The notes: generated by a model not told the origin, from the letters alone. A stretch of 64,000 nucleotides of DNA from Botryllus schlosseri (GCA_051294905.1 CM119371.1:28646001-28710000); one strand, 5' to 3'. Positions 1-37,173 are shown, counted from the first letter of the stretch. Translations and numbers: made by a program.

Positions 1-2100
1 GCAAAATTACTGGTATTGCTCTCGGATTAAAGACGCCGATATTTCTATCATAGACAAGTGTTCCACTTTTAACCACGTTCAGGAGTCGAGGCTTGTCCCA
101 AAGCATAATCGAACCGAGTTTTAGCCAATTCTACCGTCTAGTTCGAGTCGAATTTCATCTCTACTTTTCAGAGAAATTGCACGAGTATCATCACCTGGCC
201 AACGTCTTTCGCAAAATTACTGGTATTGCTCTCGGATTAAAGACGCCGATATTTCTATCATAGACAAGTGTTCCACTTTTAACCACGTTCAGGAGTCGAG
301 GCTTGTCCCAAAGCATAATCGAACCGAGTTTTAGCCAATTCTACCGTCTAGTTCGAGTCGAATTTCATCTCTACTTTTCAGAGAAATTGCACGAGTATCA
401 TCACCTGGCCAACGTCTTTCGCAAAATTACTGGTATTGCTCTCGGATTAAAGACGCCGATATTTCTATCATAGACAAGTGTTCCACTTTTAACCACGTTC
501 AGGAGTCGAGGCTTGTCCCAAAGCATAATCGAACCGAGTTTTAGCCAATTCTACCGTCTAGTTCGAGTCGAATTTCATCTCTACTTTTCAGAGAAATTGC
601 ACGAGTATCATCACCTGGCCAACGTCTTTCGCAAAATTACACGTATAGCTGTCGGATTAAAGACGCCGATATTTCTATCATAGACAAGTGTACCACTTTT
701 AACCACGTTCAGGAGTCGAAGCTTGTCCCAAAGCATAATCGAACCGAGTTGTAGCCAATTCTACCGTCTAGTTCGAGTCGAATTTCATCTCTACTTTTCA
801 GAAAAATTGCACGAGTATCATCACCTGGCCAACGTCTTTCGCAAAATTACACGTATAGCTGTCGGATTAAAGACGCCGATATTTCTATCATAGACAAGTG
901 TACCACTTTTAACCACGTTCAGGAGTCGAAGCTTGTCCCAAAGCATAATCGAACCGAGTTGTAGCCAATTCTACCGTCTAGTTCGAGTCGAATTTCATCT
1001 CTACTTTTCAGAAAAATTGCACGAGTATCATCACCTGGCCAACGTCTTTCGCAAAATTACACGTATAGCTGTCGGATTAAAGACGCCGATATTTCTATCA
1101 TAGACAAGTGTACCACTTTTAACCACGTTCAGGAGTCGGAGCTTGTCCCAAAGCATAATCGAACCGAGTTGTAGCCAATTCTACCGTCTAGTTCGAGTCG
1201 AATTTCATCTCTACTTTTCAGAAAAATTGCACGAGTATCATCACCTCGCCAACGTCTTTCGCAAAATTACACGTATAGCTCTCGGATTAAAGACGCCGAT
1301 ATTTCTATCATAGACAAGTGTACCACTTTTAACCACGTTCAGGAGTCGAAGCTTGTCCCAAAGCATAATCGAACCGAGTTGTAGCCAATTCTACCGTCTA
1401 GTTCGAGTCGAATTTCATCTCTACTTTTCAGAGAAATTGCACGAGTATCATCACCTGGCCAACGTCTTTCGCAAAATTACACGTATAGCTCTCGGATTAA
1501 AGACGCCGATATTTCTATCATAGACAAGTGTACCACTTTTAACCACGTTCAGGAGTCGAAGCTTGTCCCAAAGCATAATCGAACCGAGTTGTAGCCAATT
1601 CTACCGTCTAGTTCGAGTCAAATTTCATCTCTACTTTTCAGAAAAATTGCACGAGTATCATCACCTGGCCAACGTCTTTCGCAAAATTACACGTATAGCT
1701 CTCGGATTAAAGACGCCGATATTTCTATCATAGACAAGTGTACCACTTTTAACCACGTTCAGGAGTCGAAGCTTGTCCCAAAGCATAATCGAACCGAGTT
1801 GTAGCCAATTCTACCGTCTAGTTCGAGTCGAATTTCATCTCTACTTTTCAGAGAAATTGCACTAGTATCATCACCTGGCCAACGTCTTTCGCAAAATTAC
1901 ACGTATAGCTGTCGGATTAAAGACGCCGATATTTCTATCATAGACAAGTGTACCACTTTTAACCACGTTCAGGAGTCGAAGCTTGTCCCAAAGCATAATC
2001 GAACCGAGTTTTAGCCAATTCTACCGTCTAGTTCGAGTCGAATTTCATCTCTACTTTGCAGAGAAATAGCGCGAGTGTCATCACCTCGCCAATGTTTGTC
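1..2100 (+). repeat. Tandem array of a 210-bp unit (10 units in window, runs off the left edge)
   Basis: GCAAAATTAC recurs at 1, 211, 421, 631, 841, 1051, 1261, 1471, 1681, 1891. Units are near-identical; the last degenerates around 2050-2100. Confidence 0.98.
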
Positions 2101-2216
2101 GAAAAATAGCAAAGCATAATGCACACGACGATTGAAAATTGTATTTTTATTGCACAGAAAATGAAAGGATTGCTTTCCGAATATGAATAGCAGTCAACAA
2201 TACCGAAACATTATAT

Positions 2217-2712
2217 TTAGGAAGTACTGGATTTTTCACATTCAGAACAAAACCATAGAAAAGATGGTTCACTCCAAACACCATTCGGAATCGGTTGAGG
2301 ATGGCATTCACCATGATACCATGTGTCACATGCATCACATTTTACCATTTCAGGTTGGGAATGGGCATAAGGCAACTTGCATATACAAAATACTGGCAGG
2401 TTTATAGCTGAGAAGGGGATTGGTGTTGGATCCACGACAAAGAAATCCAGTAAATCGACATGATCTCTTTCAATCATTGTGAGGCACTTCTGCCGAAGTT
2501 GCTGCTCATACACCACCGTTTCTGGATTGAACCCAAAACACAGGCTTATGGCATTGGCTATAGCGAAGACACCGCAATCACTACTATTACTTTGCTGTTG
2601 GACCCTTGGAAATAGTATGCTGAGAGTGCTCGAACGCGGTCTACACAGCATTCCGATCGAACATATAGTTTCATCGTCATATGCCGAAGAATTGTAGGCG
2701 GAATCATACACG
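2217..2712 (-). pseudogene. 3' part of Ulp1/SENP-like (C48) cysteine protease + C-terminal PHD finger gene, interrupted by a transposon
   Basis: ORF 2217..2711 has YDS (catalytic Asp), QQQSNSSDCG (oxyanion Gln, catalytic Cys) and CICK...CDAC..WYHGEC...WFCSEC (C4HC3 PHD). Minus-strand AATAAA at 2146-2151 downstream of the stop. Confidence 0.85.
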
Positions 2713-2859
2713 CAGTGGTGGCTTTTGGGGTAGGCGAGGTAGGCGGTCGCCTAGGGCCCCCCCTGATTGATTTACGCGCTTTCGAGGGCCCCCCTCCTCA
2801 GTTTACGCGCTTTTTTCAACTATTTCTCCGGTTCACGCGCTTTTTTTCAAGTATTACCA

Positions 2860-3925
2860 TTTTCCGAATAACCGCGGAATCCTTGTATCCATAAAGAATC
2901 TTGGTATTGTACCGTAAAGAGGGGTCAAACATCAATCCACTTTTTTTAGTTATCATTTTACGAATAACCACAAAAATCCATGCACCAATGTAGAATATGG
3001 TACCGTAAGCAATTGTCGATCATTAAATTCCTGCACTTGGTGCAAGAGCTCACTTCGATTTTATAATCTCTATCCATTTTGCCATTAGTTAAAGGGCCCC
3101 CCCTCCTACATTTACGCGAATGTTATCATTTTGCAGATAACTGCAAAATACATGTACCCATGTAGAATATAATACCGAAAACAGTAGTCAACCCGCTAAA
3201 AGAGCTTACTTTGATTTTATAGGGGGGCCCCCTCCTACATTTATGCAAATTTTAGTTATCATTTTGCGAATAGCCGTGTGAAAATACATGTAGGTCTACT
3301 GCCTACGTATGTAAAATATGGTACCGTAAGCAGTAGTCGATCATTAAATTTTTGCACTAGTTGCAAGAGCTTACTTTGATTTTATGATCTCTATCCATTT
3401 TGACAGTAGCTAAAGGGCCCCCCTCCTACATTTACGCGAATGCTATCATTTTGCAAATAACTGTGAAAATACATGTACCCTTGTAGAATATAATACCGTA
3501 AACAGTAGTCAATTATTAAATTTCTGCACCCGCTAAAATGGCTTACTTTGATTTTATGAGGAGGGCCTTCCTTCTTCATTTATGCGATTTTTGGTTATCA
3601 TTTTACAAATAACCGTGAAAATATATGTACCCATGTAGCATCTGGTACAGTAAACAGCAGTCGATCATTACATTTCTGCATCAGCTAAATAGCTTGCTTT
3701 GATTTTATGAGCCCCCCCCCCTACATTTATGCGAATTTTCGTTATCATTTTGCGAATAACCGTGAAAATACATTTACCGATGTCGAATATGGTACCGTAA
3801 ACAATCTATCATTAAATTTCTGCACCCGCTAAAAGAGATTACTTTGAATTCATGTGGTCGCCCCCTCCCACATTTATGCGAATTTTCGTAATCATTTTGC
3901 GAATAACCATTAAAATACATGCAGG
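2860..3925 (+). repeat. Degenerate subterminal tandem repeats (~130-190 bp) inside the hAT element
   Basis: Motif TACATTTA(C/T)GCGAA...TATCATTTTGC recurs near 3107, 3236, 3427, 3578, 3722, 3869. Confidence 0.8.
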
Positions 3926-5460
3926 CCTACCGATAATGAAGCGAGGCCACACTGAGCCTGAATATCCAGAATAGCAAAGGAAATAGTCATTTGAAAAGCC
4001 AATGAAAGCATGTAGGCTATTATAGCCTATATATTGTTGTTTACTGAGCCATTGTCATGACTCAACATATTTGTTGTGAATTAGGCCTTTTCTGAATGGA
4101 AATCCATTCTCAGGGTTGTCATGATTTGTTCATTTCTTGTCTGGCAGCTTCCTAAATACTCAAAGGTTATGTATTATGGTGTTTTAAGCTGTTTGCAGGA
4201 ATCTTAAATTGCAACTTTTCTTCATTTTTTCAAGCAATTTTTGCAGCTTTTCGATTTTTCATGCAACTCACTTTTTACTGGAAATATTTGGTACTATATG
4301 TAAATAGATCGCTTGATTATTTCACTGTGGTTTGAATTTGAGGTCATTTCATATTTGACGTACATTCAGGCTAGACCGCCGTAAATTATATTACCACTGG
4401 GTCAATTTTTTCAGGCAATTGATTTTGTCGAAGGCGCTAACACTGAGTTTTGCGACAGTGCCTTGGATACGCATCGATTCGAGTATCTCATACCTTAATA
4501 ATTCCAAGGAACTTATCCATAAATGTACCTTTTTAGTGTAACTGTAGTGAAAAATAAATGCAACTTTCCACGGATTTGACTGCAACCAAGATTTGCCCTA
4601 AGATCAGGTGTTGCATAAGACAATTTTGACCATTACATTCTTTAAATGGGCTACCAGTTCAATATAAATATGACCCGGTAAACAGCATATTAAGTAAGGC
4701 GCACTCGTCAGTTGACAACCGTACACTTCTACGATGAGTTTGGTCACTCATTTAAAAGTTATGTTGTAATTTGTTGCATTAGTATCTCCTAATTACCGTA
4801 CTCTAGTCAAGTATCTGCTACAATGCCGCGAGTACATGCTAAATGTAAGTCAGAATCTCAGAAAAGGAAGTGGTTCAGATTCAGAAAGAAATGACAATGC
4901 AAATTTTGAACTGCTACACAAATATTTTAACAATCAATGTCAGCTCAGGTATGTTCTGCACAAATTGAGGATGATGCTGTTTTCCCAACAACTATAATGC
5001 CTTATGACTTGAATGATGTAATAGTGCTTTCAAATACGTATATGGTATTTGATTGTAGTGGTCTTTTGTATATGCTATTTGTGGCTTTTTACCGAGGGCC
5101 GAATTTCCTGGCAACCCTACTATAGTACCGTATGACCGTATACTTCAAAGTTTGTTGTTGCCATTGTTACAATGCGAATGTCATGGTTTGTGATTTTGAT
5201 TGTTGCATCATACTTTGCCTTTTTGGTTTTGCTTTTAAATCTGTTTAAATCCCTTTGGTGTGCCGTTAACTCCTGAAAAGTGGCACCCGAAAATTCTTTG
5301 AGTGCAAGAAATATTATATTACAATGGATGTTGTATTGAAAGCTATATTCTTACGGATCGTGAAACTAGCTCTTCACAGGTTATACCAGTGCTGATGTGT
5401 TCCTGTGGTATTACTGGTGTTGTACCACGTTGCCGCACATTTTGCTCTATGCCTCTTCAT

Positions 5461-6079
5461 TAGGGCTGTTCAAAAATAACTTTTTTTCCTGAATCTTGCT
5501 GGTTACTTGATTAAATCGTTAGGTTGCCTTAAAAAACGACGCATACCAAATTTGAATTCATTCCGACAAATATTCGCGGGTTACGTAGAGTTTGAAAATT
5601 TAGGATTTGCCCGAAAACGCAAAAAAAATTTTTTCTCAAATTTTTTTGCCAGCCCCATGAAATTGTTGGGCTGTCTTCAAAAACTATGCAAAACAAATTT
5701 GACTCAATTCCAAGCTGTAGAAGCGGAGTTATTTCAGTTTTTATTCGATAATTCTGGGATTATCCTTGATTGGTGGATAATCCAAGAATTATCACCGAAA
5801 AACTGGAATAACTCCGCTTCTACGGCTTGGAATTGAGTCAAATTTGTTTTGCATAGTTTTTGAAGACAGCCCAACAATTTCATGGGGTTGGCAAAAAAAT
5901 TTGAGAAAAATTTTTTTTTGCGTTTTTGGGCAAATCCAAAATTTTCAAACTCTACGTAACCCGCGAATATTTGTCGGAATGAATTCAAATTTGGTATGCG
6001 TCGTTTTTTAAGGCAACCTAACGATTTAATCAAGTAACCAGCAAGATTCAGGAAAAAAAGTTATTTTTGAACAGCCCTA
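5461..6079. mobile_element. Near-perfect palindromic (foldback) MITE
   Basis: TAGGGCTGTTCAAAAATAAC...GTTATTTTTGAACAGCCCTA with ~290-bp arms (mirror ORFs 5507+ and 6033-). Flanks CTCTTCAT/CTATTCAT are an 8-bp TSD with 1 mismatch. Confidence 0.92.
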
Positions 6080-6573
6080 CTATTCATGCAACAAAATCTT
6101 CTTGGTAGAAAAAAGATAGGCCCAATCCAGCACCTGGCTGAAACCTTGACGCGGTGTGCTGGCTTATTACTAATGTCAGCCGACAGCTTTCTGGATTTAT
6201 TTTTATATGGTCCATTTGGCGTGCAGTTGCCTTGGTATACTATTATGTCATGCTACATCCCATAATTCTTCTAAATAGGTGGGCCTCGACAAGCACTATA
6301 GTTCACTTGAGTCACTTGTTTTCAAATATGACAAGTAGTACTTTGGCATGTCATTATAATTATTTAATATGGTTACAGTTTTATCATGATGTACAGACAA
6401 TGTACTGCCGGAAGAGTGCATACGAGGTACACAACAATAAAAACTTCGTTCAGCGTTAGTAAGGGGGGTCTGGGGGGCGTAGCCCCCCAGAAGTTGCGAT
6501 GATGTAGATAAGGGCCCCCCCCAGAAGTTTCGCCTAGGGCCCCCCTAATCGTAAGGCCACCACTGCATACACG

Positions 6574-6749
6574 CATATCTGGCCATCTTCACAAAACATA
6601 TTCGAAACGGTGACCCAATGATTGTTATTTATATTAACTATCTGGATAAATTTTGATTCCTGTGCTGGGGCGAAAACCGGTCCCGCACGGTCCCGACTAT
6701 AATACCCGCAAGACGTCAATCCATCTACTTCAGGAAATTGTGTATTCAT
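6574..6749 (-). pseudogene. 5' part of the Ulp1-like protease gene
   Basis: QFPEVDGL...FIQIVNINNNHWVTVS (catalytic His in NHW). Joins in frame to ...VYDSAY when 2713-6565 and one TSD copy are removed. Confidence 0.85.
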
Positions 6750-7192
6750 AATAATATAATAATATAATATAATAATATTTTGCAGTTTTGTTGACTAGCT
6801 ATTTGCACCGAAGCTCCCAGAAGCATATGTTTGAGTTGTATCGATTCACAGCCTGTTGGGACTTTGTGCTGAACTGGAATCATGTGCATGATAATATGTC
6901 CTTTGTTAGCTCTCTTCTGTTGAAGTGTCTGTGTCCACTACATGACCTTTGGTAATTCCGGTTATTGTTGCTGAGTTCTCTTGTTCTTTTCTTTGAAATT
7001 CTATTGCGGCTCTCAACCACTGTCTGCCCCTGTTTATGATGCTTGGTACAAACATACAGATGCCATAGCCTTGCATGTACAGTACGTATGTGTACAGTTG
7101 GAATAGTGCATTGATATATTGTGCCACTGTTAGTGTTCATTGAATCCATATGCTGCTATTACAAGCATGTTGCCATAACTGACAGTGTTACA

Positions 7193-8206
7193 ATGATAGA
7201 AATATCGGCGTCTTTAATCCGAGAGCTATACGTGTAATTTTGCGAAAGACGTTGGCCAGGTGATGATACTCGTGCAATTTTTCTGAAAAGTAGAGATGAA
7301 ATTCGACTCGAACTAGACGGTAGAATTGGCTACAACTCGGTTCGATTATGCTTTGGGACAAGCTTCGACTCCTGAACGTGGTTAAAAGTGGTACACTTGT
7401 CTATGATAGAAATATCGGCGTCTTTAATCCGACAGCTATACGTGTAATTTTGCGAAAGACGTTGGCCAGGTGATGATACTCGTGCAATTTTTCTGAAAAG
7501 TAGAGATGAAATTCGACTCGAACTAGACGGTAGAATTGGCTACAACTCGGTTCGATTATGCTTTGGGACAAGCTTCGACTCCTGAACGTGGTTAAAAGTG
7601 GTACACTTGTCTATGATAGAAATATCGGCGTCTTTAATCCGAGAGCTATACGTGTAATTTTGCGAAAGACGTTGGCCAGGTGATGATACTCGTGCAATTT
7701 CTCAGAAAAGTAGAGATGAAATTCGACTCGAACTAGACGGTAGAATTGGCTACAACTCGGTTCGATTATGCTTTGGGACAAGCTTCGACTCCTGAACGTG
7801 GTTAAAAGTGGTACACTTGTCTATGATAGAAATATCGGCGTCTTTAATCCGACAGCTATACGTGTAATTTTGCGAAAGACGTTGGCCAGGTGATGATACT
7901 CGTGCAATTTTTCTGAAAAGTAGAGATGAAATTCGACTCGAACTAGACGGTAGAATTGGCTAAAACTCGGTTCGATTATGCTTTGGGACAAGCCTCGACT
8001 CCTGAACGTGGTTAAAAGTGGAACACTTGTCTATGATAGAAATATCGGCGTCTTTAATCCGAGAGCAATACCAGTAATTTTGCGAAAGACGTTGGCCAGG
8101 TGATGATACTCGTGCAATTTCTCTGAAAAGTAGAGATGAAATTCGACTCGAACTAGACGGTAGAATTGGCTAAAACTCGGTTCGATTATGCTCGACTCCT
8201 GAACGT
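7193..8206 (-). repeat. Inverted array of the same 210-bp unit (~4.8 units)
   Basis: Reverse complement of the 1-2100 unit; AATATCGGCGTCTTTAATCC at 7201, 7411, 7621, 7831, 8041. Confidence 0.97.
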
Positions 8207-8975
8207 CTTCTTGCGTATTGTATTTGGTTGAAATAATACTTGCAATAAATCATAGTTGTCTGTTTTGGACATGTTTTACGCGACAGATCCGCATAAAATT
8301 TGGTATGGACAGAGTTGTATATACGTTTTATCATGTGTCAGTGTCCAAATCCGGATACAATATCCGGATACGCCATTGTTTCATCATTTTGGTGATACAA
8401 CCGTTCATGTTGTTATATGTCACATTTAGTAGGTACCCTTCGATTTGTGTGATAGAATTTTGTGTGATAACTTCACTCTGGTCACCCAAAACAGTATCGC
8501 TCAGTGCTTGTTTCAATGGCGTTCAAGGCGATTCGTCGTGTATTTCTTGAAGTTGCGTCGGAATTAGTTAGACAGTTCAACATTTAAGTAGCGGTGGCGA
8601 GTCGTTATGACTAGTGAATAATACTGTGTAGCCTATGTTACATTTCTCACGAGATTGATGTGATATTGCGGCTTTGATCCTTTGTAGAGTTTGCTACGTA
8701 TATGAATATAATGACAGAAGATATAGAATATCTGGTCCGTGTGCATTGGCTATTGTGAGATGAATTCATGGAAAGAAAGACTGAAGAATACTACAAAGTG
8801 AACAAGTGGAAAGATCTTGAACTATGCCGATATGCAATTCACAATATCGTTGATTGAAAATATGTCCTATATTAACTGCAGAAACTCGAGTATGAATATA
8901 ACAAATAATATTGCAACTGTCTTGTGGTCTTATATAATGCCTGTCCGATTACCGCAGAAACTTGAGTATGACTAG

Positions 8976-10284
8976 CAGGACCGTAAGTGCCGCACCCCAA
9001 ACCCCCCAATTGTGGGGGGCCCGAACTCGAAGGGGGCCCAAAATTATTTCGCGAATTAGCATAAATTATGGAGCATTTTTCAAAAATTGATGCAACTTTT
9101 TCAAAAAATTTTCGCGCTGCGTGCGATTTCAAGTTGCCAACTTTCTTAGTTATTTGGTAGCCTACTCTTCCCCAAGACAAAATACGCAATATTTATTGAA
9201 ATGGACATATCGGCGAGACATTCAAAGTTTTAGAACATGTAACATGCGACTCCAAGAAGTGTGCCAGAACGATCGGCAGCGAGAAAACCTGAGCCAAAAA
9301 GGACTGCCCGCTTACGCTGACCGAAAACTTCGGGATATATGCAAAATGCATATAGGTTTAATTGTCCATAGGCGCCTAAATGACTGGCGCCGAATGTTCC
9401 TGTTTTGGCAATCTGAACCTCAGAAGACAAATATCATTCCGCAGGGGAAAATTGTATGCCCGTAAAGAAATACAAATTTGAAATCGTGTGCGTCGTTAGT
9501 CTAGTACATATCGGCAATTTTGTATTTTTTGATAAAACAGACAGGAGATCACGAAATGACATCATGAAACGAAGTCATACCAACGGGGCCGCCCGCCCGA
9601 ATATGTTTAATTATTATTTAGGGGCTCTACAGTTTCCAAGCCACCTGATTCAGCTCTACTGGTAAATCTGACAACGTGAACAGAGAGAACAAGAAATTGA
9701 TAGCAATATATATGCAATTCCCAATATTATTGACCGATTTTATCATGAATTATCGAATATTTTCGCGCTGGCTCACTAAACTGTGGCCCTTATTTCGTGA
9801 CAAAAGCGAACAACGTGATGGGGGGTTATCACCCTATGGGAGTCCGAGACCCAAGTCTTATTGGGGGGTCTGGCCAAGTGCTGTTTCGTTCCTGCGAACG
9901 GGTATACGCCCGAAGATGTTCAATTATTATTGAGGGGTCCTACCATTTCAAACACACCTCACTCAGGTCTACCGTTAAATCTGACTACGTGGGCAGAGAG
10001 AGAGGATAAAAATTGATAACACTATATATTCAATTCCCGATCATATTGACCGATTAAATCATGAATTTTTTCGCGCTTCGCGCGTGTGGACGACCAGTGC
10101 TGCCCCACTAAACGGACGGTGAACACAGATGATGAGTAGCGGTAAACAGAGTATAGCCAATGGAGGTCTGGGGGGCCAAGCCCCCCAGAAGTTCGGTTTA
10201 ATCACCCTATGGGGGGGGGGGGGCATGACCAACGTTTATTTTGGGGGGGGGGCGGGGGGCTGACGAAGTGCTGTTACGGCCCTG
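8976..10284. mobile_element. Non-autonomous hAT-type element nested in the CAC-TIR element
   Basis: TIR CAGGACCGTAA / TTACGGCCCTG; perfect 8-bp TSD ATGACTAG at 8968-8975 and 10285-10292. Confidence 0.92.
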
Positions 10285-10335
10285 ATGACTAGAACAAGCG
10301 CCTTGTGTAATGTTAATGTTCTGCTTGAGCTCGAC

Positions 10336-11602
10336 TCACAATAGCCAGAGCTTACTCCTTGAAAGTGTGCAAAATCGCACTTGAAGGGAACTCGTTGTCA
10401 TTGCCAAGAACACAGGAAGACGTCTGCCGGTCGACATTAGTTGTAAGCCAATGCACCACGTCAAGGTGTCGACCAACGCATTGGTTTCCTTTTTTAGGTA
10501 GGGAACCTCAATGTGGATAGGCAGCATTTGCCACAGAGAGAAAAAACTACCATACTAAAAGAGCATATTGTTCATTTTTTTTTCAAACCATCTCGCAAAC
10601 TTTTGGAAAATTTGGAGGACTTTTTTTGCTTCTCATGCAATGCAAACTTTGCAAAATTGTGAGACAAGATGTTATTCAAGTGTCTCATTGCCTTGTCCAT
10701 GACATCCCTCAACCTCATTTAGGTCTGAGCCAGATTGAAGTGACACAGTATGAATTAATTTGTTATAGAATGGATCACAGTGAATTGCGTCAAGTACCCT
10801 GGAAAAATTGATCTTTTTCAGGGGTTTTGCCATTTCTTTACTGTGGATAACATAAAAGCGGAGAACCATGCCATGAAACTGTTCAGACGGGCTCTTCAAT
10901 CCACCGACTTTCTTCTGCATCACTTTAATGAGGTTTCCCGATGGCGCTGCAGATGTTAGGCATGTGGCAATTGCTTCGTTAGCTTGCTTAGAAATGGCTC
11001 CCAAAAGCACTCCACCAATACATTCAAGTATGTCTAAAAACATGTCAAAGTTTTTCCATGGAAAGGGAAAGTATCAAAGGCTATTAACTTACCAGATTCC
11101 TTGCTGTTGACTCCTCCATCTCTGTGATTGGATCCTGTTCTTTACCGCACATGAGAGAATCAAACTTCTTCAAAAGTAATGCTGAAACTGGCAATTGCGG
11201 CAAACCCAGCAACTTGTTAGCTTGGTGACAGATATTAGAATAATGTTGATAAAATCCGTCAACACCAAGTTTGCAATATTCAGAATGGAGTTGTTTCACC
11301 AATGGAACAGCTTTGGTCACGTCTAGTTCCTCGAATGATGGGGCGCATTCAAAGTATTTTTTGCTATTTACACAAGCCCTCTTTAAAACAGCAATTACAG
11401 CATCCTCAGATATATCCCAAGTACTGGTGGGAACTTTATGGTTTTTGTAATGTTTTTTCAGAGATTTCACAGTCGGAAAGGATGCTTCGCATTCCTCACA
11501 AATCACACCTTTCCAGTTATCGAGTCCTTCGAAACATTCTTCAATTTCCATTTCAGTTAGTCCCTCCCAGTCATCCCAAAGTGATGCAGCTGAATCAGTC
11601 AT
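10336..11602 (-). pseudogene. Spliced, frameshifted gene: N-terminal C2H2 finger plus a domain resembling the C-terminal module of P-element/THAP9-type transposases
   Basis: CEECEASFPTVKSLKKHYKNH (C2H2) in ORF 11084..11602. GTAAGT...TTTTTAG intron at ~11092-11034. Next exon ILECIGG...CLTS...NLIKVMQKKVGGLKSPSEQF. A 1-nt shift just before the donor is needed to join the frames. 3' end approximate. Confidence 0.55.
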
Positions 11603-12392
11603 GATACAGATTTCTATCCGTGACGAAATATGATCTAAACCTGGCGAAAAATAGAACAGGGGCTACACGGTATTATTCACTAGTCATAACGACTCGCCAC
11701 CGCTACCTAAATGTTGAACTGTCTACCTAATTCCGACGTAACTTCAAGAAATACACGAAGAATCGCCTTGAACGCCATTGAAACAAGCACTGAGCTATCC
11801 TGTTTTGGGTGCATCCATCTGACCGTGACCATTCTGCCGGCTAACAATGGGAGAACAATCGAGTCGTCACTCCAGTCATACTCTATAGTTAAATGCATTC
11901 ATTGCTATGGATCAAGCCCTGGCTGGTTCCGACAATAAATGACAACGTTGAAACCGCTGATACCGCTCACCTCGTTGAAATGCGTAAGCAACATAAGTAA
12001 AGTTTCTGCAGTGACGAGATTACTGCTGGATGAGATGAGGACGAAGGCAGGCTGCAGCAAGCGAGCTGCAGAGGTGTTTGTTTTCGAATTCAGTTGTTCC
12101 TCAGATATTGATTCTTATCCTTCCTGTTCATCAGCCATTAGGGTACTTGATATCAGTTGTCAGAATGACAGAAAAGCGACGTGTCGGTGTTGTTGCAGAG
12201 GTAACTGGTGGTTCTGATTTCTGATGATATTTGGAATGATTGTGTGGTGTGGTAATGTATGAATACATGCTGGCATGGTCAATTGGTCATGTTTATGATT
12301 TCGGAAACACTAGAACTGAAGTGCCACCGGTACTCTCTGATTGATTGTGCACATCATCATGCTGATTATATATAATATTATATATATTTCCT

Positions 12393-15016
12393 CAGTGGCG
12401 GCTCGTCCTATAGGGCAACTGGGGCATTGCCCCACCTAAAATTCTGTTCAATAACAATTTAACCATTTATAGACGCACAGCAATCAATATATACCGAGAT
12501 CACAGCGAAACCCGCGTTCTTCTTGTGCTTTCGCTTGCAAATGCCCATACATAGCGCAGTCTGCGAAAATCGAATTCTCTTCTGTGTTTTCGCTTTGTGA
12601 GTGCCTAGCCGGGGCTTGCCCCGGTAGCGCTCATAATAAGCTTTCACTATCTATTCTTTCAAAGCCGCGCACAATAAAGAAACGGTGATTTACTCTCTCC
12701 TATTCGTAAAATGGCCGAGCAACCGGGGCAAATATGCCTGGTCGCCCTTAAGGTGTGATGTAACAATCGTATCTATATCTGAACTCGGTTACCGTAATAT
12801 GCGTTGAGTCGACCTTTGCTGGTATAGGTCGATTTTGACGGTGTTTCGCACCATGATAATTCTTGAAACTTGGTATGATATGTCGTGAAGGTAGTATTTA
12901 ACACTGCTCCAAGTTTCAGGCTTGCTACTTAGAGATAAGGGTAGTAATTCCGTTTCCGAAGTTCAGTGTGTGCTGATCTATCATGTACATAGTACAGCAA
13001 ACAGATTTTACTCAAAAGCCGGTATTGGTCTCCATTGATTTTGACGATGTTCTATACCGAGATCGGTCATGACATTTGGCACGGTAACTGTTAGTATCGA
13101 CCGCTGTAACAAGTTTTAAGTTTGTCACTGAACTATGTGGGTGGTAATTTCGTTTCCAAAGTCGAGTAAGAGCTGACTCTTCATTTATCGCTAATAAATT
13201 TACGCAAAAGCCGTTATTGGTCTCTAACGATTTTAACGATGTTCCATACCTAGATCTGTCATGAGCTTTTGCACGGTATGTCTTGATTTTAGTATCGAAC
13301 GCGGTGCCAAGTCTTAAAGTTGACACTCAATGATTGAGGCAGTTATTTCGTTTTCGAGGTCGAGTATGGTAGAGATGCGCGCTGATCTGATACTTGGCCT
13401 ACCTACGTCATTGCGGATCTCACGCAAAAGCCGGTGTCGGTCTGTGCTAATCTATAGTCTGCGTTCCATAACGAGATCGGTGATGATATTTCCAATGGTA
13501 TATCTCGATGATCGCATGAAACAGCTAACCAAGATTCTCGGTTTGCATTCAAATATTCACATAATTTTATGTTCGCCAATGTCCATTTCACTGTGGAATT
13601 GTCAATTGTGGCCTTCAAACCATTTGCTTACAATCCCCTGTCAAATGCGATAGCTATTTCATTTTCGATGTCGGCTAACAGCTGATCATTCGATCAGCCT
13701 ATTCCTCGATCTATTTTACTCAAAGTTCGGCGTTCGTCTGTTTGTATTGATTTTGACAGTGTACCATACCGGAATGGGTTATGAGATTGCGTATGCTACT
13801 TCTCGATGATTTCTTGTAACAGTATACTAAGTTTACGGCTTTTATTCATGTATTTATTGATTGATATATATTCCAACGGCGATTTCGCAGCAGACTTATA
13901 GACAGTAAGCCGTATGTGTTGTGTCACAGTCTCCAGTTTCAAGGCCAAAATGTCCTATGTTGTTCCGAGACCGAAGTTCCGAGGCTGCTGTCCTTATAGT
14001 TCTTCAAAGACAATTCAAATTGATGTTCTGGATTCAATATGACAGGCCCGTTCTATGAGATAACAATTGTATATGTGTCCGAACTCGTTGACCTTTCCAG
14101 TTAGGCTTACGCAATCTCTCGAGTTCTAGTCATTGGAATTAGTCAGGTCAAGTCAAGTGCGAACATGAATCGTATTGAATCTTTGCTCCGTACGTAGTTT
14201 ACGCAGTTGCCTTTATAGAGCGAAAATGAGAGGTCTAGAAGTTGCCAAGTCCATTGATCCAATCGTACGCCGGGTGCCTCCGCTTTGGTTGCTATTATCA
14301 CCTGGTCGTAACCAGAGATGGCCACAGTCCGGTTCGGGAGCCGGAGCAGGATTTCAATGTTTTTTTTACCTGGCCGGACTGGATCCGGATTTTGAATTTG
14401 GGGTGACGGTCTGATTTTAGCCGGATTTTTTTGCTGTGATATGATTAATTAGCATTGTTCTGGCAGGATTTTTTCGGATTCCGAACTGGACATTCACCAG
14501 CCGGATTTCTTTGGACTCTGAATTTCCAATTGCCAGCCGGATCCGGATAGATTCGGATCCCGAAATTTTGGAATCCGCCCATCTCTGGTCGTAACCACCA
14601 GCTCAGTGGTCGTAACACACCAGGATCGTGTACGAAACACTTTCGGACGGGTTTAGAAAAATTAGGGTCTATCGATTTGCGTAATCTATAACTCTACCAT
14701 GAAATCATAACGCATGCTACTAAGGATGACCTGATACTTGATTCGTGGCATAGGGACGATTCTTAGGTCACGTACATTTTGTAAAATAATCCTTTGATTA
14801 AAAATAAATGAATAAAACATTTGTTACCACAGTTCAAGTCACGGCTCGCCGGCAAACCTCTCGCGGCACCTACGTTAAAATCACTGTTGTCGGGAAATTC
14901 ATGTGACCATCATAAGGTTACCTTTTTTACGTTGGAAACGCCATTGTGACGTCATGTTGATAAAAGTCGCTCGCAGCCCTTGCCCCACCACCCGATATTG
15001 TCACGAGCCGCCACTG
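12393..15016. mobile_element. Non-autonomous hAT-type element
   Basis: TIR CAGTGGCGGCTCGT / ACGAGCCGCCACTG; perfect 8-bp TSD TATTTCCT at 12385-12392 and 15017-15024; degenerate ~200-bp internal repeats at ~12810-13800. Confidence 0.93.
14313..14587. mobile_element. MITE (CAGAGATGG ends, CCGGAT-rich)
   Basis: TSD GTCGTAAC at 14305-14312 and 14588-14595; a partial related copy lies at ~15450-15567. Confidence 0.9.
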
Positions 15017-15970: not shown

Positions 15971-16494
15971 TAGGGCTGGGCAAAATCGAGTACCTGAGTG
16001 ATTCGATTCTGAATCACGTAAAATGCTTCGAGTCGAGTAAGCGAGTATCACTCATTATGACGTCATAGCAGAATATTATTTGTCAAAGTTCAAATATGTG
16101 CCTTTTAAGCGACCACAAAGAATATAATGCCTGTTATCCATCATATTAAGGATACTTTGTTATTTTTTTCGACCATACCGATTTCATTGCACTTGGTGAC
16201 AATATTGTGGGATGATCATGACTTCGGAAATGTGCTATTTCCAGTAACGTTCGTAGCTTTGTACTTCATGTTTCGTATGCTACGATACGGCCAATCAAGG
16301 TTTCAAGGCTTCAACAGTGAAATTAGCATAAACTCGTTGATTGTTGATAAACTCCTCGTTGATAAATCAACTTTCAGTGGTGAGGAGCGTATAATTTCAG
16401 TACTCGAAAAAATCGTATTTTACTACTCGACTCGAATCATTAAAATTAATACTCGATTCAGATTCGAGTACTCGAATCATTGTGCCCAGCCCTA
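15971..16494. mobile_element. MITE (TAGGGCTGGGCA ends)
   Basis: TIR TAGGGCTGGGCA / TGCCCAGCCCTA; TSD GTCGTTGA at 15963-15970 and 16495-16502. Confidence 0.92.
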
Positions 16495-18515: not shown

Positions 18516-20137
18516 TCCTCCAGATAAAACGTAACCCATCATTGATAAATTAATGGCGAGGTCAATTTCATAAAAATGATAGCATCTGAGCAATGGATTC
18601 AAAAATTGACAGTCGCAGAACAGACTTCCAAAGAGAGATGGCAACGCGCAAAATAATTAATTTTGACATTTATAATTTTTGTCATGTTCTTGGGAATCTT
18701 TAACTGCTGGTCATGATGAACATTGTTTGATGTCTGGCTGCTATCGAAAAAGCCCCATTCACATCAACTTGCACAGCTTGGTACATGTTTCGTGTGCTGC
18801 AATATATCCAATCGAGGTTATTAGGCTTCTGCAGTGGAAAATGTGTCAAAACTATATTCGTGGCAGATAAATTAATAATGAGTAATCGTACTGGTATTCG
18901 ATTCAGATTAGAGTACCCAGCAATAGTTAACAGGGGGATATGTGTATTTGAGTTGAACTGCTCCAGGACATTAATTATTTATGTGTTAAGTAAAGTTAGA
19001 TGCTTTCAGTTGCTCAGATTTTTATAAATGTGATTTATTATACTTCAGCCTTCTGTGCCTTATCTCACATATGTAATGCAAATTCCCCAGCTGTGTTGTA
19101 CATTTCGGTGGTTACAGTGTGTTTCGAATTTAATTTACCCCGTGCTAATTTATTTCAGTATAATTTACCGAATATAGGAGTGGGTCAGATCATGTCAGGT
19201 GATCCAGAAAAATTTCAAAATGTACCTCCACCATCTCAGATTGTCATTAAAATTGGCATGGTTAGAAAACTTTTACTTCTGCTTTCAAAAAAATAAATTC
19301 CATCGAAATCGGATGAGTAGAACCAAAGATATGGCCGTTTAAAAATTGCTGTTTTTGTGATCACTGAAGCGGAAAAAATGTCAGAAATTTATACATGTAA
19401 TTTGAATTTGCTACAATTCGTTCAAATTAGGGTTGTTGAAGGTAACACTTTCACATTTGTTCATTTATGTCCTGCTTGACACTTTTTCGCCTTCTTTGAC
19501 ACCTGGGGTTGCATAGTCTGACCTTTAACCTCGCTTTTTGTTCGTGTATTTGAAAATCACTCATGCGTGACTTCATTTTTGATTGCAAATATCTCTGGTG
19601 ACCAGGTGATGTCATCAAGTGTAAGGTATCATTGGAAAGCTCTTGACAAGAGCTTTTAAAAGCAAAAATAACATTAGTTACTTTTGAATCGTAACATACC
19701 ATAAGAGCGCCATGAAGCAAGCTTGCAAATTTATTCAAAATCTTCCCCCTTTTCAACAAGAGCAAACTCTGTAAAGCAACTCATTCCACCTTTATTCTAT
19801 ACACAGTACCATGCCAAGTGTTTTATACATAAGGTAGTCAGTATAACTCAGACAGATAATTGCTGACATCAATTATGCTGACAATAATTTGAGATATTTT
19901 TGAAAATTTGAGAAAATTTTGCTACACAGTTTGATGTGACACACAATACTTCACTTCAGAATTCACTACTGAAAGGATAAGATGCGATGTTTTATGTACT
20001 CTACACAATACATTCGGGCAACGATCAGCACTAAACAATGAAAGGAACAATGACAATCAAAATCAATATAAGGTCCTGCGGGTTCATTAGTTTTCATACT
20101 ATTAGATAATAACTATTTGCTCATATCAGATATCTAT

Positions 20138-21772
20138 TTATCTTTGATGATATTTCTTCCAAACTTGTATGACTTTCAGTGCTGATTCCTTTGTCAGTTG
20201 GTATTGTCCCCGATTATTAAATAAACAAGGAACGTCAACTGTGCACAAAATGTGCTGGAACGGTGTCCAGCAAGAATCTTTATTTTGAGGCCAGTGAAAA
20301 AACTCTGATGGGCCTTTTGGGTGCATGAATTCAACTAAGGCATCGTTGTTTGGCTTGTCAATTTCTGTGACCATGCCAATGCACCAGTTTTCATCATAAA
20401 CGCAGCATACAAATTTGTTTATGATAATTTCAATTTGAAGTACATTTTCTTGGTTTGAGTCTTCATCTAATTCAACTTCCAATACATAGTGTTTGTCTTG
20501 ACTGACACGTTTTGCTCCCAGTTTGGTTGATGACAATGGCCTAAAATGATGGAATGCCCGAATACCTTTGACTGTGGTAGCGAGCCGAAATCGCTGTTCC
20601 AAAAAAGCTCTCGTAGCATCCAATTCGTCTTTGAGCAAATTAATAAATTTTATTTTTTGGAGATTTTTCACGCAAGAGGACATCATTTCTTCCACGTTCA
20701 AAAGCTGACCATTCAGTTGGCGTCTCAGACTTTCCATTGCTGTAGCTCGTTTTACAGTGCCACCAATGCCATCACATGGCGATTTACCATGGCTCGAGGC
20801 AAAAAAGGACCACGCAGCATCCACTTCGAAGTCAGCTTTGTGCTTGCACAAATTGTAAAATGATTTTCTGTTTTTGTACTGGGCAGCGCAACCATCGCTA
20901 AAATATTCCACATTGTCCAAGTTGTGAATTGTACTTTTGAGAACTTCAATTGTCTTTTGCTGAATCAGATACACCATTACTGCATCGTGCAACAACTCTT
21001 CCGATAAAAAGCATATATTTAAATGCAAAGTATTGTTGCTTGCAGACTTGTAGTAGCAAACTACCGGGTGCACAGTGCAGCATTGGTGAGTCCAATGATA
21101 CCCTTGCGCTTCATCTTGAATGTGGAAAGAATAATTTTCCGCAAAATCCATTAATACAAGAGCTGTTTGCTGATCCATATCTTGTTTTCGTTTTTTCAAA
21201 TATAAAGACTGTGAATGCGAAATGTGATGATGTGGTGCTAAATCTGCAAGCTTTTTTAATATCAACTGAATAAATTCAGTTATGGTTAAGGTTTGAGTTA
21301 TTAGATCAGTTCGGTCAACTGACACCCACTGTTTGAACGAAATAAGTTCATCCACATCCTCAAATTTTGAGTCAAGCAATTCCTGAACGGGTTGAAATCC
21401 GGGACAGTTTGGGTAACGCTGTAGCATGCAGTCTCTATTTTCAATATTGCAGACTGCCAATTGAAGCAAATCTTTATAAGTTTCTTCAATGCGGGCAGCA
21501 TGCAGCAAAAGAACAACATTTTGATGTATGGTACAGACACATACGGCATGTGTTCCAGATGATCCTGCACTAACACACCATTTCGGCCTCAATTCACAAA
21601 ATTTTGTGAATCCAATTTTTGCATCCGGGTTTTGCTGTTTATACAGGGTATGGAATTCTTTCAGAGTACATAAAAGTAGACGTTTTTGTTGATACACATT
21701 CATTTTAATGCTAACTCGGTCCTTCATCCCTGGCATCAACCTGCTATGTTCGTTGTTTTCATAAAATTTCAC
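20138..21772 (-). CDS. Sola2-type DDD transposase, 5'-truncated
   Basis: 544-aa frame with LRPKWC..CVCTIHQN, MDFAENY..Q.YHW, FSDGCAAQYKN, HGKSPCDGIGGTVKR. It starts at GTG directly against the inner edge of the right TIR, so the N-terminus appears deleted. Confidence 0.8.
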   Translation of the reverse strand: MKFYENNEHSRLMPGMKDRVSIKMNVYQQKRLLLCTLKEFHTLYKQQNPDAKIGFTKFCELRPKWCVSAGSSGTHAVCVCTIHQNVVLLLHAARIEETYKDLLQLAVCNIENRDCMLQRYPNCPGFQPVQELLDSKFEDVDELISFKQWVSVDRTDLITQTLTITEFIQLILKKLADLAPHHHISHSQSLYLKKRKQDMDQQTALVLMDFAENYSFHIQDEAQGYHWTHQCCTVHPVVCYYKSASNNTLHLNICFLSEELLHDAVMVYLIQQKTIEVLKSTIHNLDNVEYFSDGCAAQYKNRKSFYNLCKHKADFEVDAAWSFFASSHGKSPCDGIGGTVKRATAMESLRRQLNGQLLNVEEMMSSCVKNLQKIKFINLLKDELDATRAFLEQRFRLATTVKGIRAFHHFRPLSSTKLGAKRVSQDKHYVLEVELDEDSNQENVLQIEIIINKFVCCVYDENWCIGMVTEIDKPNNDALVEFMHPKGPSEFFHWPQNKDSCWTPFQHILCTVDVPCLFNNRGQYQLTKESALKVIQVWKKYHQR

Positions 21773-22185
21773 AACTTTTTAACTGCTCTTGTTGAAAAGG
21801 GGGAGGATTTTGAATAAATTTGCAAGCTAGCTTCATGGCGCTCTTATGGTATGTTACGATTCAAAAGTAACTAATGTTATTTTTGTTTTTAAAAGCTCTT
21901 GTCAAGAGCTTTCCAATGATACCTTACACCTGATGACATCATCTAGTCACCGAAAGATATCTGCAATTGACAATGAAGTCACGCGTGAGTGATTTTCAAA
22001 GACATGAACAAAATCACAAGGTTAAAGGTCAGACTATGCAACTCCAAGTGTCAAAGAAATCGAAAAAGTATCAAGCAGGATATAAATGAACAAGTGTGTA
22101 AGTATCACTCTCAACAACCCTAATTTGACCGAAATATAGCAAATTTAAACTACATGTATAAATTCCCGATATTTTTTCTGCTTAA

Positions 22186-24023
22186 CCGATTGGCGCCGGC
22201 TGCAATTTTCGAAAAATTTTACTTCAATTTTCCAAGTCGAAAAACTGTACCTTAATGGGATTGGAACACGTCAAACAAGGTGTCGTTCGATTCAGAACTT
22301 CAGCGCGCATCCGATTGCGCCACTCAAATCATTTCGAGCACTGTGTCTGGCCACTTATATCAAGAGCAAGCCGAGAATTCGTTGATGAGAAACGTATTAC
22401 ATTTACTGTACTCTTTATAAACCTAAACATGGATATCTGGTGACATAGGCTTCTTGTGAATCATATCGGCGAGGAAATCATGATCATGGAGATGGCTCAG
22501 TCGATCTAATACGCCCTAATATAGCCATCATCCAATAGATACAGTTCTGAGGGTTTGCACAATAAACACGCGCCAGACCGCAGAGTGGATGAGTCATCGG
22601 CGAGTGAGCAAGTGACGCGCGTGTATTTATTTGGTAGCGTAGCCTTCCAGGGCATTTACAAAGCTTATAGAGCACGTAAATGGGTCACTTTAGTATTGAT
22701 AAATGGAGATTGTCAAGACCTAACCATAAGGACAAACCACAAACGCATATCTTACTACTACGTAAGGTTTATGACGTTAGTTGGTAGCACTTCATACAGA
22801 CATGATACACACGTTTGCGGGGAATACACAGCGTGTAGAATTGGTCTTGTTGCGATATATACATCACTATTAGCTGTTAGTCTGATGTAGATATAATCTT
22901 ATGGGCATGTACTCTCCACAGAAACAATCTAAGAATGTCTACTACCGATAAAATTCAGGATATAACACACTATGTTACAGATATTCGTCCCTGCGTTTGA
23001 TACTAGTGTGGTAGTCTGCAGGAATTCTCTTCACGATTTTTAGAAGCGGCCTTGGGGTGACATAGGCATAACTAATGTTGTTTATTTTGGCCTTGAAGGT
23101 GGAGATTGGCTAGTTCTATTGAAAGAGACCTTTCATTACTACAACGAAAGATATATATCGTTATACGACAGCTCTTTGTATGTCCAGATGAACACTTTTG
23201 CGTAGGTATATGCGCTGAGTAATATTGTATTTATTCCGAATTATACTTGACTATTAGCCATTATTTAGAATCGTATAGGCAGCAACTATTCACAGACACG
23301 ATCTATGAAGGTATATCACTATTAGAACTCGATACATATCCCGTTTTGTGACCAGTATTCATCCATCTGCTTGAAGCTGGTACGGTAGGCTGCGAGAATT
23401 CTCTTCCCGGTTTTCAAATGCAACCTTGAGCGATGCAGACATAACTAGTATAGTTGTTTTAGCAAGAAAATCAGAAGCTGACAAGTACTATTCATAGAAA
23501 CAAACTACAACAACTGGCTATGACGAATCAAACCAAATATACGACAGGGTATATGATGGGTATCGGGAACGCGCGTTTCCGCGAAATGATGCGGTCGGCG
23601 GATATCTTTGTCACGCGGCCTATCACATAGATTTATAACACCTTATATGTAACTAATATCAGATACGAAGATATGTGTGAATTGGTATGGACACTAGCTT
23701 TTCACAGAAAGAAACAACTATGCTCTAAGACGGCTAGAACAAAACATACAGTACGTTATCTGAGAGTGGTCAAGGACGCGCGTGTTGCCGAGACAGTGTA
23801 TTTTGCAACATATTTATCTACGGTATTTGATATCCGATTTCGACGTCTTAGATATAATATATACCAAATAATATGGTATCAATGAACTGGCACAAACAAT
23901 ATCTATCCGCAGACATGAACAGCAGCGACCTAGCACGATTAGAACGGGATATATAGTGGTTCTAATACAGTACGCTTCCCTCTAACGGCAATGGGTAAAA
24001 ATACCCACGCCGGCGGGAGACGG
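22186..24023. mobile_element. TTAA-targeting (piggyBac-like) non-autonomous element inserted in the Sola2 right TIR
   Basis: TTAA at 22182-22185 and 24024-24027; imperfect TIR CCGATTGGCGCCGGC / GCCGGCGGGAGACGG; removing it restores the Sola2 TIR. Confidence 0.8.
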
Positions 24024-27281: not shown

Positions 27282-27661
27282 GTCTATATGGACTATTATT
27301 CCCGGAGCAATTTTTCTATTGATGTATTTGATGTATGGCAGGGGTTCTTAACACGGTGCCCGCACATAATTGTTTTGTGGCCAATAATTTGGACAATTTT
27401 ACATGCGAAGTTGAGAACATCTGTTGTATGATATACTGGTACGACAATTGAGCAGACGACTATCTAATAAAGTTCTTCCTTTAATTTAGTTTCACACTTT
27501 CATACATGTTAGGTAGTATAATACTATCATCGAGCCAAGTTATATGTGCCTAATTTAGTTGGTATAATTTGTGCCGAACACATTGGACTACAAGGACTTC
27601 GAACTCCGCGTAAAGAGTTTCCTGGAGTCAAATATTTCAATTTTTGACCACCTCAAGCTTC

Positions 27662-29194
27662 ATGGATATGAATGGCATCAAATATCATGAATGTGATATA
27701 CGCGGGAAAGAAATCCGCGGCAAAAGTCTTTTTAAGCGTCATATGGATGGGCATTCCGACATCAGAAATCATGAGTGCGATATATGTGGGAAAGAATTCC
27801 ACCGCAAAGATCATTTCAAGCGTCATATGGATGGACATTCCGACATCAAAAATCATAAGTGCGATATATGTGGGAAAGGATTCCACCGCCAAGATCACTT
27901 CAAGTCTCATATGGATTCACATGCTGACATCAGAAATCATAAGTGTGATATATGTGGGATAGAATACCGTTGCATACAAAACCTCAAGCGTCACATGAAT
28001 AAACATGCCGGCTTCAGATATCATAATTGTGAAATATGTGATAAAGCATTTATTCAGGAGCATCAAATCAAGTGTCACATGGATATACATACTGGCTTCG
28101 AAAATCATGAATGTGAGATATGTGGGAAAGAATTCCGTCATAAAAGTGACTTCAAATGTCATATGGATGTACATGCTGGAATCAAAACTCATGGGTGTGA
28201 TATATGTGGGAAAGAATTCCGTACAAAAATACACCTGAAGTATCATATAGATGTACATGCTGGCATCAGAAATTATAAGTGTGATATATGTGATAAAGCA
28301 TTCAGTATGAAGCAACAACTCAAGCGTCACATGGATGTACATGCTGGCATCAGAAATTATAAGTGTGATATATGTGATAAAGCATTCAGTACGAAGCATC
28401 AACTCAAGGGTCACATGGATTTACATGCTGGCATCAAAAATCATGAGTGTGATATTTGCGGGAAAGAATTCCATACGAAAAGTTATCTCAAGCGTCATAT
28501 GGATATACATGCTGGCATCAGAAATCTTAAGTGTGATATATGCGGGAAGGACTTCTGTGAGAAAAGTGAACTCAAGCGTCACATGGATGTACATGCTGGC
28601 ATCAAAAATCATAAGTGTGCTATATGCGGGAAAGAATTTTATGAGAAAAGTGTTTTTGAATGTCATGTAAATGTACATGCCGGCATCAAAAATCTTAAAT
28701 GTGATATATGTGATAAAGCGTTTAGTCAGAAGAACCTACTTGAGGTTCACATGGAAATACATTTTGACTTCAACAATCATAAATGCAAAATTTGTGGGAA
28801 AGAAGTCTGCCAGAAAAAAAATTTCGATCGTCATATGAGTTTACATGCTGGCATCAGAACTTATAAGTGTGATATATGTGGTAAAACACTGAGTCGAAAG
28901 AGTTACCTCAATCTTCATATGGTTATGCATGCTGACTTCAAACAACAAAAATGTGATATTTGTGGGAAAATATTCACTCAGGAAAATTACCTCAAGACTC
29001 ATGTGACGATACATGCTGATATCAAAGATCACAATTGTGAAATATGTGGGAAATCATTTACTTTGAACCGGTACCTCAAGAGTCATATGAATGTTCACGT
29101 TGGCATCAAAAATCACAAATGTGATATATGCGGGAAATTATTTACGCGAATAATTGGCCTCAAGGCTCATTTAAATATACATGCTCGCATCTGA
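27662..29194 (+). CDS. Tandem C2H2 zinc-finger protein, copy 1 (18 fingers, first degenerate), prematurely truncated
   Basis: 28-aa CxxC-x12-HxxxH repeats with HAGIRN-type linkers; first ATG at 27662; TGA at 29192-29194 where the paralog has AGA. Confidence 0.88.
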   Translation: MDMNGIKYHECDIRGKEIRGKSLFKRHMDGHSDIRNHECDICGKEFHRKDHFKRHMDGHSDIKNHKCDICGKGFHRQDHFKSHMDSHADIRNHKCDICGIEYRCIQNLKRHMNKHAGFRYHNCEICDKAFIQEHQIKCHMDIHTGFENHECEICGKEFRHKSDFKCHMDVHAGIKTHGCDICGKEFRTKIHLKYHIDVHAGIRNYKCDICDKAFSMKQQLKRHMDVHAGIRNYKCDICDKAFSTKHQLKGHMDLHAGIKNHECDICGKEFHTKSYLKRHMDIHAGIRNLKCDICGKDFCEKSELKRHMDVHAGIKNHKCAICGKEFYEKSVFECHVNVHAGIKNLKCDICDKAFSQKNLLEVHMEIHFDFNNHKCKICGKEVCQKKNFDRHMSLHAGIRTYKCDICGKTLSRKSYLNLHMVMHADFKQQKCDICGKIFTQENYLKTHVTIHADIKDHNCEICGKSFTLNRYLKSHMNVHVGIKNHKCDICGKLFTRIIGLKAHLNIHARI

Positions 29195-29900
29195 AATCAT
29201 GAATGTGTAATATGTGGGAAGGTATTTACTCAGGAAAATGACCTCAAAGCTCACATGGACATGCATACTGGCATCAAAAGCCATAAATGCGATGTATGCG
29301 GGAAAGTATTTACCACAAAGAAAAACCTCGATCATCATGTGGATATGCACGTTGGTGTCAAAAGTTATAAGTGTGATGTATGTGGGAAAGTATTTATTTG
29401 AAAGAGTAACTACAACCAACATATAATTATACATTCTGGTGTAAAAAAGCATAAGCCATAAATGCGATGTATGCGGGAAAGTATTTACCACAAAGAAAAA
29501 CCTCGATCATCATGTGGATATGCACGTTGTTGTCAAAAGTTATAAGTGTGATGTATGTGGGAAAGTATTTATTTGAAAGAGTAACTACAACCAACATATA
29601 ATTATACATTCTGGTGTAAAAAAGCATGAATGTGAAATATGTGGGATAGCATTTACTAGACCGGGTCACCTCAAATGTCATCTGGATATACACATTGGCG
29701 TTGAAAGTCACAAGTGTGATATATGTGGCAAATCATTTAATAGGAAGGGTGGCTTCATGGTTCATATGGATTGACATGCTGGTACCAAAAAACCATAAAT
29801 GCGATATATGTGCGGTTGCTTTTTCTGAAAAGTGCTACCTCAAACACCGTGTGGACAAGCATGAGGGTGGAAAATTATATAAAATGTATGTTTGTATCAT
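29195..29900 (+). pseudogene. Disabled 3' remainder of zinc-finger copy 1
   Basis: Fingers continue past the stop, with TGG>TGA, a ~175-bp frameshifting tandem duplication (~29279-29453 repeated at ~29454-29628) and a further indel near 29770. Confidence 0.85.
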
Positions 29901-37158: not shown

Positions 37159-37173
37159 TGATACAGATTAACA

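Follow-up and report, generated by a model that had tools for sequence, protein, structure and literature searches.

Facing inverted arrays of a 210-bp unit in Botryllus schlosseri as candidate arms of a dead foldback transposon

The window analyzed here, one strand of 64,000 nucleotides from Botryllus schlosseri (GCA_051294905.1 CM119371.1:28646001-28710000), opens with two arrays of a 210-bp unit, the left and the right array, which enclose the split remnant of a gene. The inverted orientation of the arrays, their common polarity with unit type A outside and type B inside, the gene tail and its interruption were all directly observed. On balance, the two arrays are probably the arms of one foldback-type transposon, whose gene may be its own or a passenger. 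The narrower proposal that they are the arms of a dead, deleted cut-and-paste foldback element with tandem-repeat arms, in the architecture of Tetris and Rehavkus, has in our judgment an even chance of being correct.

According to Tandem Repeats Finder, the 210-bp unit is repeated 10.0 times at 1-2107 and 4.8 times at 7193-8192, and the arrays at 1-2107 and 7193-8206 lie in mutually inverted orientation. In the best register (312-1311 against 8192-7193) the inverted arms were 99.4% alike with 6 mismatches in 1,000 bases, followed by registers with 11, 14, 16 and 18 mismatches. The facing inverted arrays reported in a preliminary description of this DNA were thus borne out. No 16-mer of the unit was found outside the two arrays within the 64 kb, and the pairing of the arrays is therefore not a matter of chance. 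After subtraction of a nested insertion, the distance from arm to arm is 1,224 bp.

Two types of units were distinguished by six fixed differences at unit positions 11, 12, 17, 62, 90 and 121. Units L1-L3 are identical and of type A. Both arrays share the same polarity, with A units outside (L1-L3 and the outer right units) and B units inside (L4-L9 and R2-R4). The B units vary at seven further sites. Comparison of R2-R4 with L4-L6 in the mirror register gave 5 differences, and 51 of the 120 ordered triples of left B units matched R2-R4 with 5 or fewer differences, the mean over all triples being 5.8. Since the mirror order of the B units is no better than random, the mirror is only one step deep. 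Moreover, the private variants of L6 and R2 are without partner in the opposite arm. The symmetry is a single common switch from A to B and nothing deeper. Of the mirror-ordered variants proposed earlier, the arrangement of A outside and B inside on both sides was confirmed, whereas an order among the B units was not. Such a switch would be expected from two arms of one element and equally from any two copies of one array; the polarity is most simply explained by a founder copy or by one past copying event from arm to arm. There was no sign of ongoing symmetry keeping between the arms, and the earlier idea that they are kept symmetric is not supported, as the mirror consists of one switch and both ends of the right arm are truncated.

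The inner ends of the two arrays differ in their state of preservation. Unit L10 shows 10 differences from L4, nine of them within its last 43 bases, and the inner end of the left array is a worn natural edge. The right array stops at unit base 51 without wear. Its outermost unit comprises unit bases 75-210 and carries a 13-bp deletion at 8192/8193. This part of the window was compared with public contigs, which were aligned over 7995-12392 only and came from four runs (X1, X2, X15 and X5) of three samples, X1 and X2 being one sample (S1). In all four runs, the full unit was present in loose ends of contigs, so that the 13-bp deletion is private to this copy; together with 170T in R2 it makes up the private variants of the right array. 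An inverted match between the arms beyond the units was not found, and the two sides have no matching inner arm domain, which a later deletion could explain. No target duplication of at least 4 bases flanks the right array.

The core between the arrays spans 5,085 bases. It had been described as unique, but 3,853 of these bases belong to the nested insertion and the remainder is a gene remnant of about 1.2 kb on the minus strand. The 3′ gene piece matched the Pfam families PHD (E 1.7e-07) and Peptidase_C48 (E 0.0062, below the curated cut-off of that family). At E<=0.001 the piece has 1,984 relatives, the best being 78% identical and the others 28-48%. By a strict count, 55 of 150 relatives match 6574-6755 as well as the 3′ piece, with the two matches in order. 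Furthermore, positions 346-407 of a profile built from 28 relatives aligned to 6574-6755 (29.5 bits) and positions 402-569 to the 3′ piece. Read through the empty insertion site, about 225 codons form one open frame with His, Asp, Gln and Cys motifs, which we take to be those of an Ulp1-like protease. The insertion, which splits this protease domain, was classified as hAT-type from its ends, matching at 12 of 14 bases, and its perfect 8-bp target duplication; hAT elements are defined here by short inverted ends and an 8-bp target duplication. The stop codon and the AATAAA motif precede the left array by about 110 and about 45 bases, respectively, and the far end of the array lies outside the window. 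No transposase domain remains in the core. For a DDE domain of the MULE type there was neither room nor a match upstream of the protease, and a SWIM-Ulp1-PHD profile, which does not contain the DDE domain itself, reached at most 0.8 bits. The coordinates of all parts are given in Table 1.

Table 1. Arrays, gene pieces, nested insertions and right flank at the start of the window.
Feature	Coordinates	Strand	Description
Left array	1..2107	+	10 units, of type A in L1-L3 and of type B in L4-L9, each of 210 bp; L10 decays towards its end; leaves the window leftwards
Spacer after stop codon	2108..2216	-	Minus-strand AATAAA at 2151; does not significantly resemble the unit
3′ gene piece	2217..2712	-	Encodes the second half of a Ulp1-like cysteine protease domain (C48), then a C-terminal PHD finger; stop codon at 2217-2219
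hAT-type insertion, 3,853 bp	2713..6565		Short inverted ends starting CAGTGGTGGC; target duplication 2705-2712 / 6566-6573
Degenerate tandem repeat of ~147 bp	about 2943-3930		Within hAT-type insertion
Palindromic miniature inverted-repeat transposable element (MITE), 619 bp	5461..6079		305-bp arms, 96%; 8-bp target duplication, 7/8 matching; within hAT-type insertion
5′ half of Ulp1-like domain	6574..6755	-	With His motif; in-frame join to 3′ piece once the insertion is removed
Decayed upstream sequence	6756..7192	-	ATAAT microsatellite 6751-6778; each of the three frames broken by stops; weak linker-like matches; TGTAA inward from 7192
Right array, 1,014 bp	7193..8206	-	From outside inward, a partial and one further A unit followed by three B units and 51 bases of a fourth; abrupt at both ends
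Piece of moderately repeated family	8207..8482		Other copies continue with different letters at both ends

A tail of protease and PHD finger is typical of several groups of DNA transposons. Relatives of the tail with a recognizable front end included a MULE transposase, SWIM-bearing proteins, two proteins carrying a GPY motif and a third type that has no Pfam name. The MULE transposase, P0197 from Hydra, contains MULE, ZSWIM RNaseH-like, Ulp1 and PHD domains and ends in protease and PHD as does the core gene. The best classifiable match of the tail was the GPY-type protein P0045 (34% identity, 131 bits; next match 123). In a quick tree built on 36 rows, the window protein stayed unplaced, beside P0001. 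The same tail ends MULE, GPY-type and other proteins and does not decide the superfamily. In Zisupton (KDZ) elements, a KDZ transposase precedes an Ulp1 and PHD tail; the core gene has no remaining upstream domain. A literature search found nothing that linked Zisupton to a SUMO protease and nothing on a MULE transposase with SWIM, Ulp1 and PHD. Ulp1 and PHD domains are described for both Ginger1 and Mutator transposases in the available part of PMC2836005. There was no long close relative of the gene tail among 116 candidates, which is weak evidence. Searches of genome, metagenome and viral contigs gave no confirmed locus of the tail, or likewise of P0045. For a 26-base word from the 210-bp unit there was no match in metagenome, viral and prokaryote contigs, and Rfam gave no match in 1-13,000.

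Several published elements resemble this arrangement, as far as the available parts of their descriptions go (the sources named in this paragraph other than PMC5225508). Tetris of Drosophila virilis, a source of satellite arrays, has long inverted arms with tandem units of about 220 bp in variable number; most of its copies are rearranged or fragmentary and the units also occur as long satellite-like arrays (PMC4079207). The arms of Tetris also contain non-tandem domains, one outer and one inner; its target duplications measure 8-10 bp and its middle is non-coding (PMC4079207). Within the window, no such arm domain or target duplication was seen for the Botryllus copy, and its middle holds the remnant of a protease and PHD gene. 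Rehavkus, placed in or beside Mutator/MULE, likewise has tandem repeats in its inverted termini, a PHD finger and an array just past the gene (PMC6446971, PMC12581902), and its repeats expanded to satellites of up to 80 kb in Tribolium (PMC12581902). Rehavkus has a 9-bp target duplication, and the Botryllus copy retains no DDE domain for comparison; the two were compared by description only (PMC6446971, PMC12581902). Galileo F of Drosophila mojavensis carries a tandem repeat of about 210 bp in long arms that differ in repeat number within one copy, but it belongs to the P-element superfamily, has a THAP domain and contains 2-3 repeats only (PMC3573991); we saw no sign of such a transposase here. 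The layout of Muta1 is the same with short units (PMC5225508). Ginger1-9_HM shares C-terminal Ulp1 and PHD domains, and the TGTNR motif of Ginger1 fits the right end of the core (PMC2836005). However, Ginger1 has inverted ends of 40-270 bp and CCGG/CCGT targets, neither of which was found, there is no integrase in the core, and the available text on Ginger1 describes no tandem arms (PMC2836005). The Botryllus element may work like Tetris and Rehavkus, and it is not assigned to any single group.

The right flank was characterized by means of the public contigs. A terminus ending in GTCACA had been suggested at 8419-8424. It is unsupported because contigs from three runs (X1, X15 and X5) read through this position, their match ending at 8482-8484 at the start of a different repeat; in addition, the sequence has no inverted partner within the window. 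One X5 contig matched 8209-8347 without difference and continued leftwards with 26 other letters instead of the array, and another matched 8318-8484 and continued rightwards with 105 other letters. The flank 8207-8482 is either an inner piece of a repeated family that is usually not beside the array, or this copy lost the junction sequence. Candidate roles are an outer arm domain, an intron or an unrelated repeat. There was no protein support for this segment: a search with the open plus-strand frame found nothing, and the Atlas gave 0.77. We also considered that the gene continues through 8207-8482 and 11812-12390, the right array having been inserted into it. This is not supported, as single matches were at chance level (E 0.01-0.4) and the profile gave -0.7 to 0.8 bits; an intron in this part would escape such searches. 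On the minus strand, 11812-12390 contains a faint SWIM-like motif and a helical stretch, collinear with the MULE-type profile at no more than 0.8 bits.

Summed contig depth, a poor measure that does not equal copy number, was 198 (X1), 213 (X2), 33 (X15) and 48 (X5) times higher for the unit than for the flank. Relative to a repeat at 10.3-11.7 kb, unit depth was 67, 96, 12 and 9 times higher in the same order. Compared with an abundant hAT-type repeat, the unit was equally deep or deeper in X1 and X2 but had only a tenth of the depth in X15 and X5. These values hint at a 210-bp unit that is abundant and variable between samples. At 7995-8141, the unit was about 10 times deeper relative to neighboring repeats in the sample of X1 and X2 than in X15 and X5, which may reflect copy-number variation or library bias.

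An intact element would have consisted of inverted arms with subterminal 210-bp arrays and a single gene, whose end next to one arm encoded an Ulp1-like protease and a PHD finger. A deletion may then have removed the inner ~3.8 units of the right arm along with the 5′ part of the gene including the transposase domain, and either after or before that event the hAT-type element would have entered the protease domain. The outer end of the right arm was presumably damaged as well. By analogy to Galileo and Muta1, the tandem units would be extra transposase-binding sites and the arms would vary in unit number independently; tandem arm units have been proposed as such sites for Galileo (PMC3573991) and in the discussion of Tetris (PMC4079207), according to the available parts of both papers. 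This copy cannot move by itself and probably does not move at all.

The proposal of a dead foldback element is favored by arms that are nearly identical over 1 kb, inverted, separated by little more than the gene remnant once the insertion is removed and the sole copies of the unit in 64 kb. Their common A-to-B polarity also speaks for it, as does the gene tail, which recurs at the end of the Hydra MULE transposase P0197 and is reported for Mutator elements (PMC2836005). The array adjoins the 3′ end of the gene, where, in the available description, Rehavkus carries a minisatellite (PMC6446971), and arm units of about 210-220 bp would have counterparts in foldbacks described in the parts of the literature cited above (Tetris, Galileo F and Rehavkus). 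Other findings weigh against it. Neither a terminus nor a target duplication was seen within the window, which the left array leaves, and no transposase domain is left in the core. At least two extra deletions are needed at the right arm. The protease and PHD tail does not fix the superfamily, because it also ends GPY-motif (Ginger-like) and other proteins. Furthermore, the flank occurs without the array in X5, and the 33-213 times greater depth of the unit in all four runs exceeds what 5-10 units per arm would give. The earlier view of two arms of one foldback transposon nevertheless persists as the best single reading, once the variant with a passenger gene is included.

A possible but less probable explanation is that an abundant 210-bp satellite, or the arm of another element, gave rise to the right array as a stray 1-kb piece, inserted or copied near the end of the left array, in inverted orientation and amid old transposon debris. 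The arrays would then never have been a working pair of ends, and A followed by B would be the ordinary order of the family. Both ends of the right array are indeed abrupt, with the 13-bp deletion 16 bases inside the outer junction, a mirror at the level of units is absent, and the region is a stack of nested insertions. The X5 flank without array and the great depth of the unit point in the same direction; relative to neighboring repeats, this depth in S1 (X1 and X2) is about 10 times that in X15 and X5, a pattern expected of a variable satellite. However, no target duplication of 4 or more bases surrounds the right array, the profile test does not put 8207-8482 in the same gene (-0.7 bits), and a random piece, inverted and spanning the A/B switch, must have come to lie within about 1.2 kb of the sole other copy in 64 kb.

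Distinctly unlikely is a variant in which the foldback arms are real and the gene is a passenger, namely a Ginger-like (or Zisupton-like) insertion in the right arm, a later deletion having taken its other end together with the middle of the foldback. The core starts with TGTAA inward from 7192, which fits the TGTNR ends of Ginger, and Ginger1-9_HM ends in Ulp1 and PHD, both according to the available part of PMC2836005; the best classifiable match is of the GPY type (P0045, 131 bits versus 123). On the other hand, no inverted partner of the TGTAA end was found in 2001-2720 within 5 mismatches of 16, the adjoining bases are ATGA and not CCGG, CCGT or ACGG, and the stretch of only about 430 bases between the end at 7192 and the protease is too short to encode an integrase. 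The motif was spotted post hoc and, by our estimate, arises by chance at one junction in about 1% of cases, and the tree gave no support.

Near-identical tandem arrays are prone to inversion and misassembly. That the facing arrays reflect a local inversion or an assembly error at the repeat is very improbable. No contig piece bridged 8206/8207 among the pieces listed (32 of about 140,000), but a gap in contig cover proves nothing. Owing to its private variants and the worn edge of the left array, the right array is no collapsed copy of the left units seen here, and a plain inversion does not explain the matching A/B polarity.

Other mobile elements and genes were observed further along the window, where C2H2 zinc-finger arrays and the transposon content point to a genome of animal type. 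At 8483-11811, a pair of inverted repeats of 188 bp (89%) without clear target duplication surrounds a minus-strand remnant with a C2H2 finger at 11084-11662 and a second frame at 10672-11073; it is multi-copy, with similar depth out to 12392. Four further insertions, each bounded by short inverted ends and an exact 8-bp target duplication, lie at 8976-10284, a member of a very abundant family, and at 12393-15016, 14313-14587 and 15971-16494. An element at 19360-22190 has about 400 bases of inverted ends in three pieces (86-96%) and encloses an open frame of 546 codons (20138-21778, minus strand), which resembles a DDE-type transposase by eye, but no Pfam family matched it below E 0.069. A pair of related tandem C2H2 zinc-finger genes with 84-bp units and about 20 fingers each lies at 27614-29627, with a 175-bp internal duplication near the end, and at 53190-55538. 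A Gypsy-type gag-pol frame at 37162-41784 is open over 1,540 codons.

The seeding of satellites by elements of this kind is already published for Tetris (PMC4079207) and for Rehavkus in Tribolium (PMC12581902), as stated in the available parts of these reports. If the two arrays are in fact arms, the Botryllus copy would be one more, badly damaged, foldback whose tandem arms can become satellites. A rather unlikely but farther-reaching scenario is that a transposon family with a protease and PHD gene and 210-bp arms is now seeding a satellite: the unit would have escaped the arms and become about 10 times commoner in one individual than in others of the same or a close species, and types A and B would be successive waves of amplification through both arms. 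Only if the tenfold difference in abundance is real would the locus gain greater importance, because it would then offer a test within a species of satellite birth from transposon arms.

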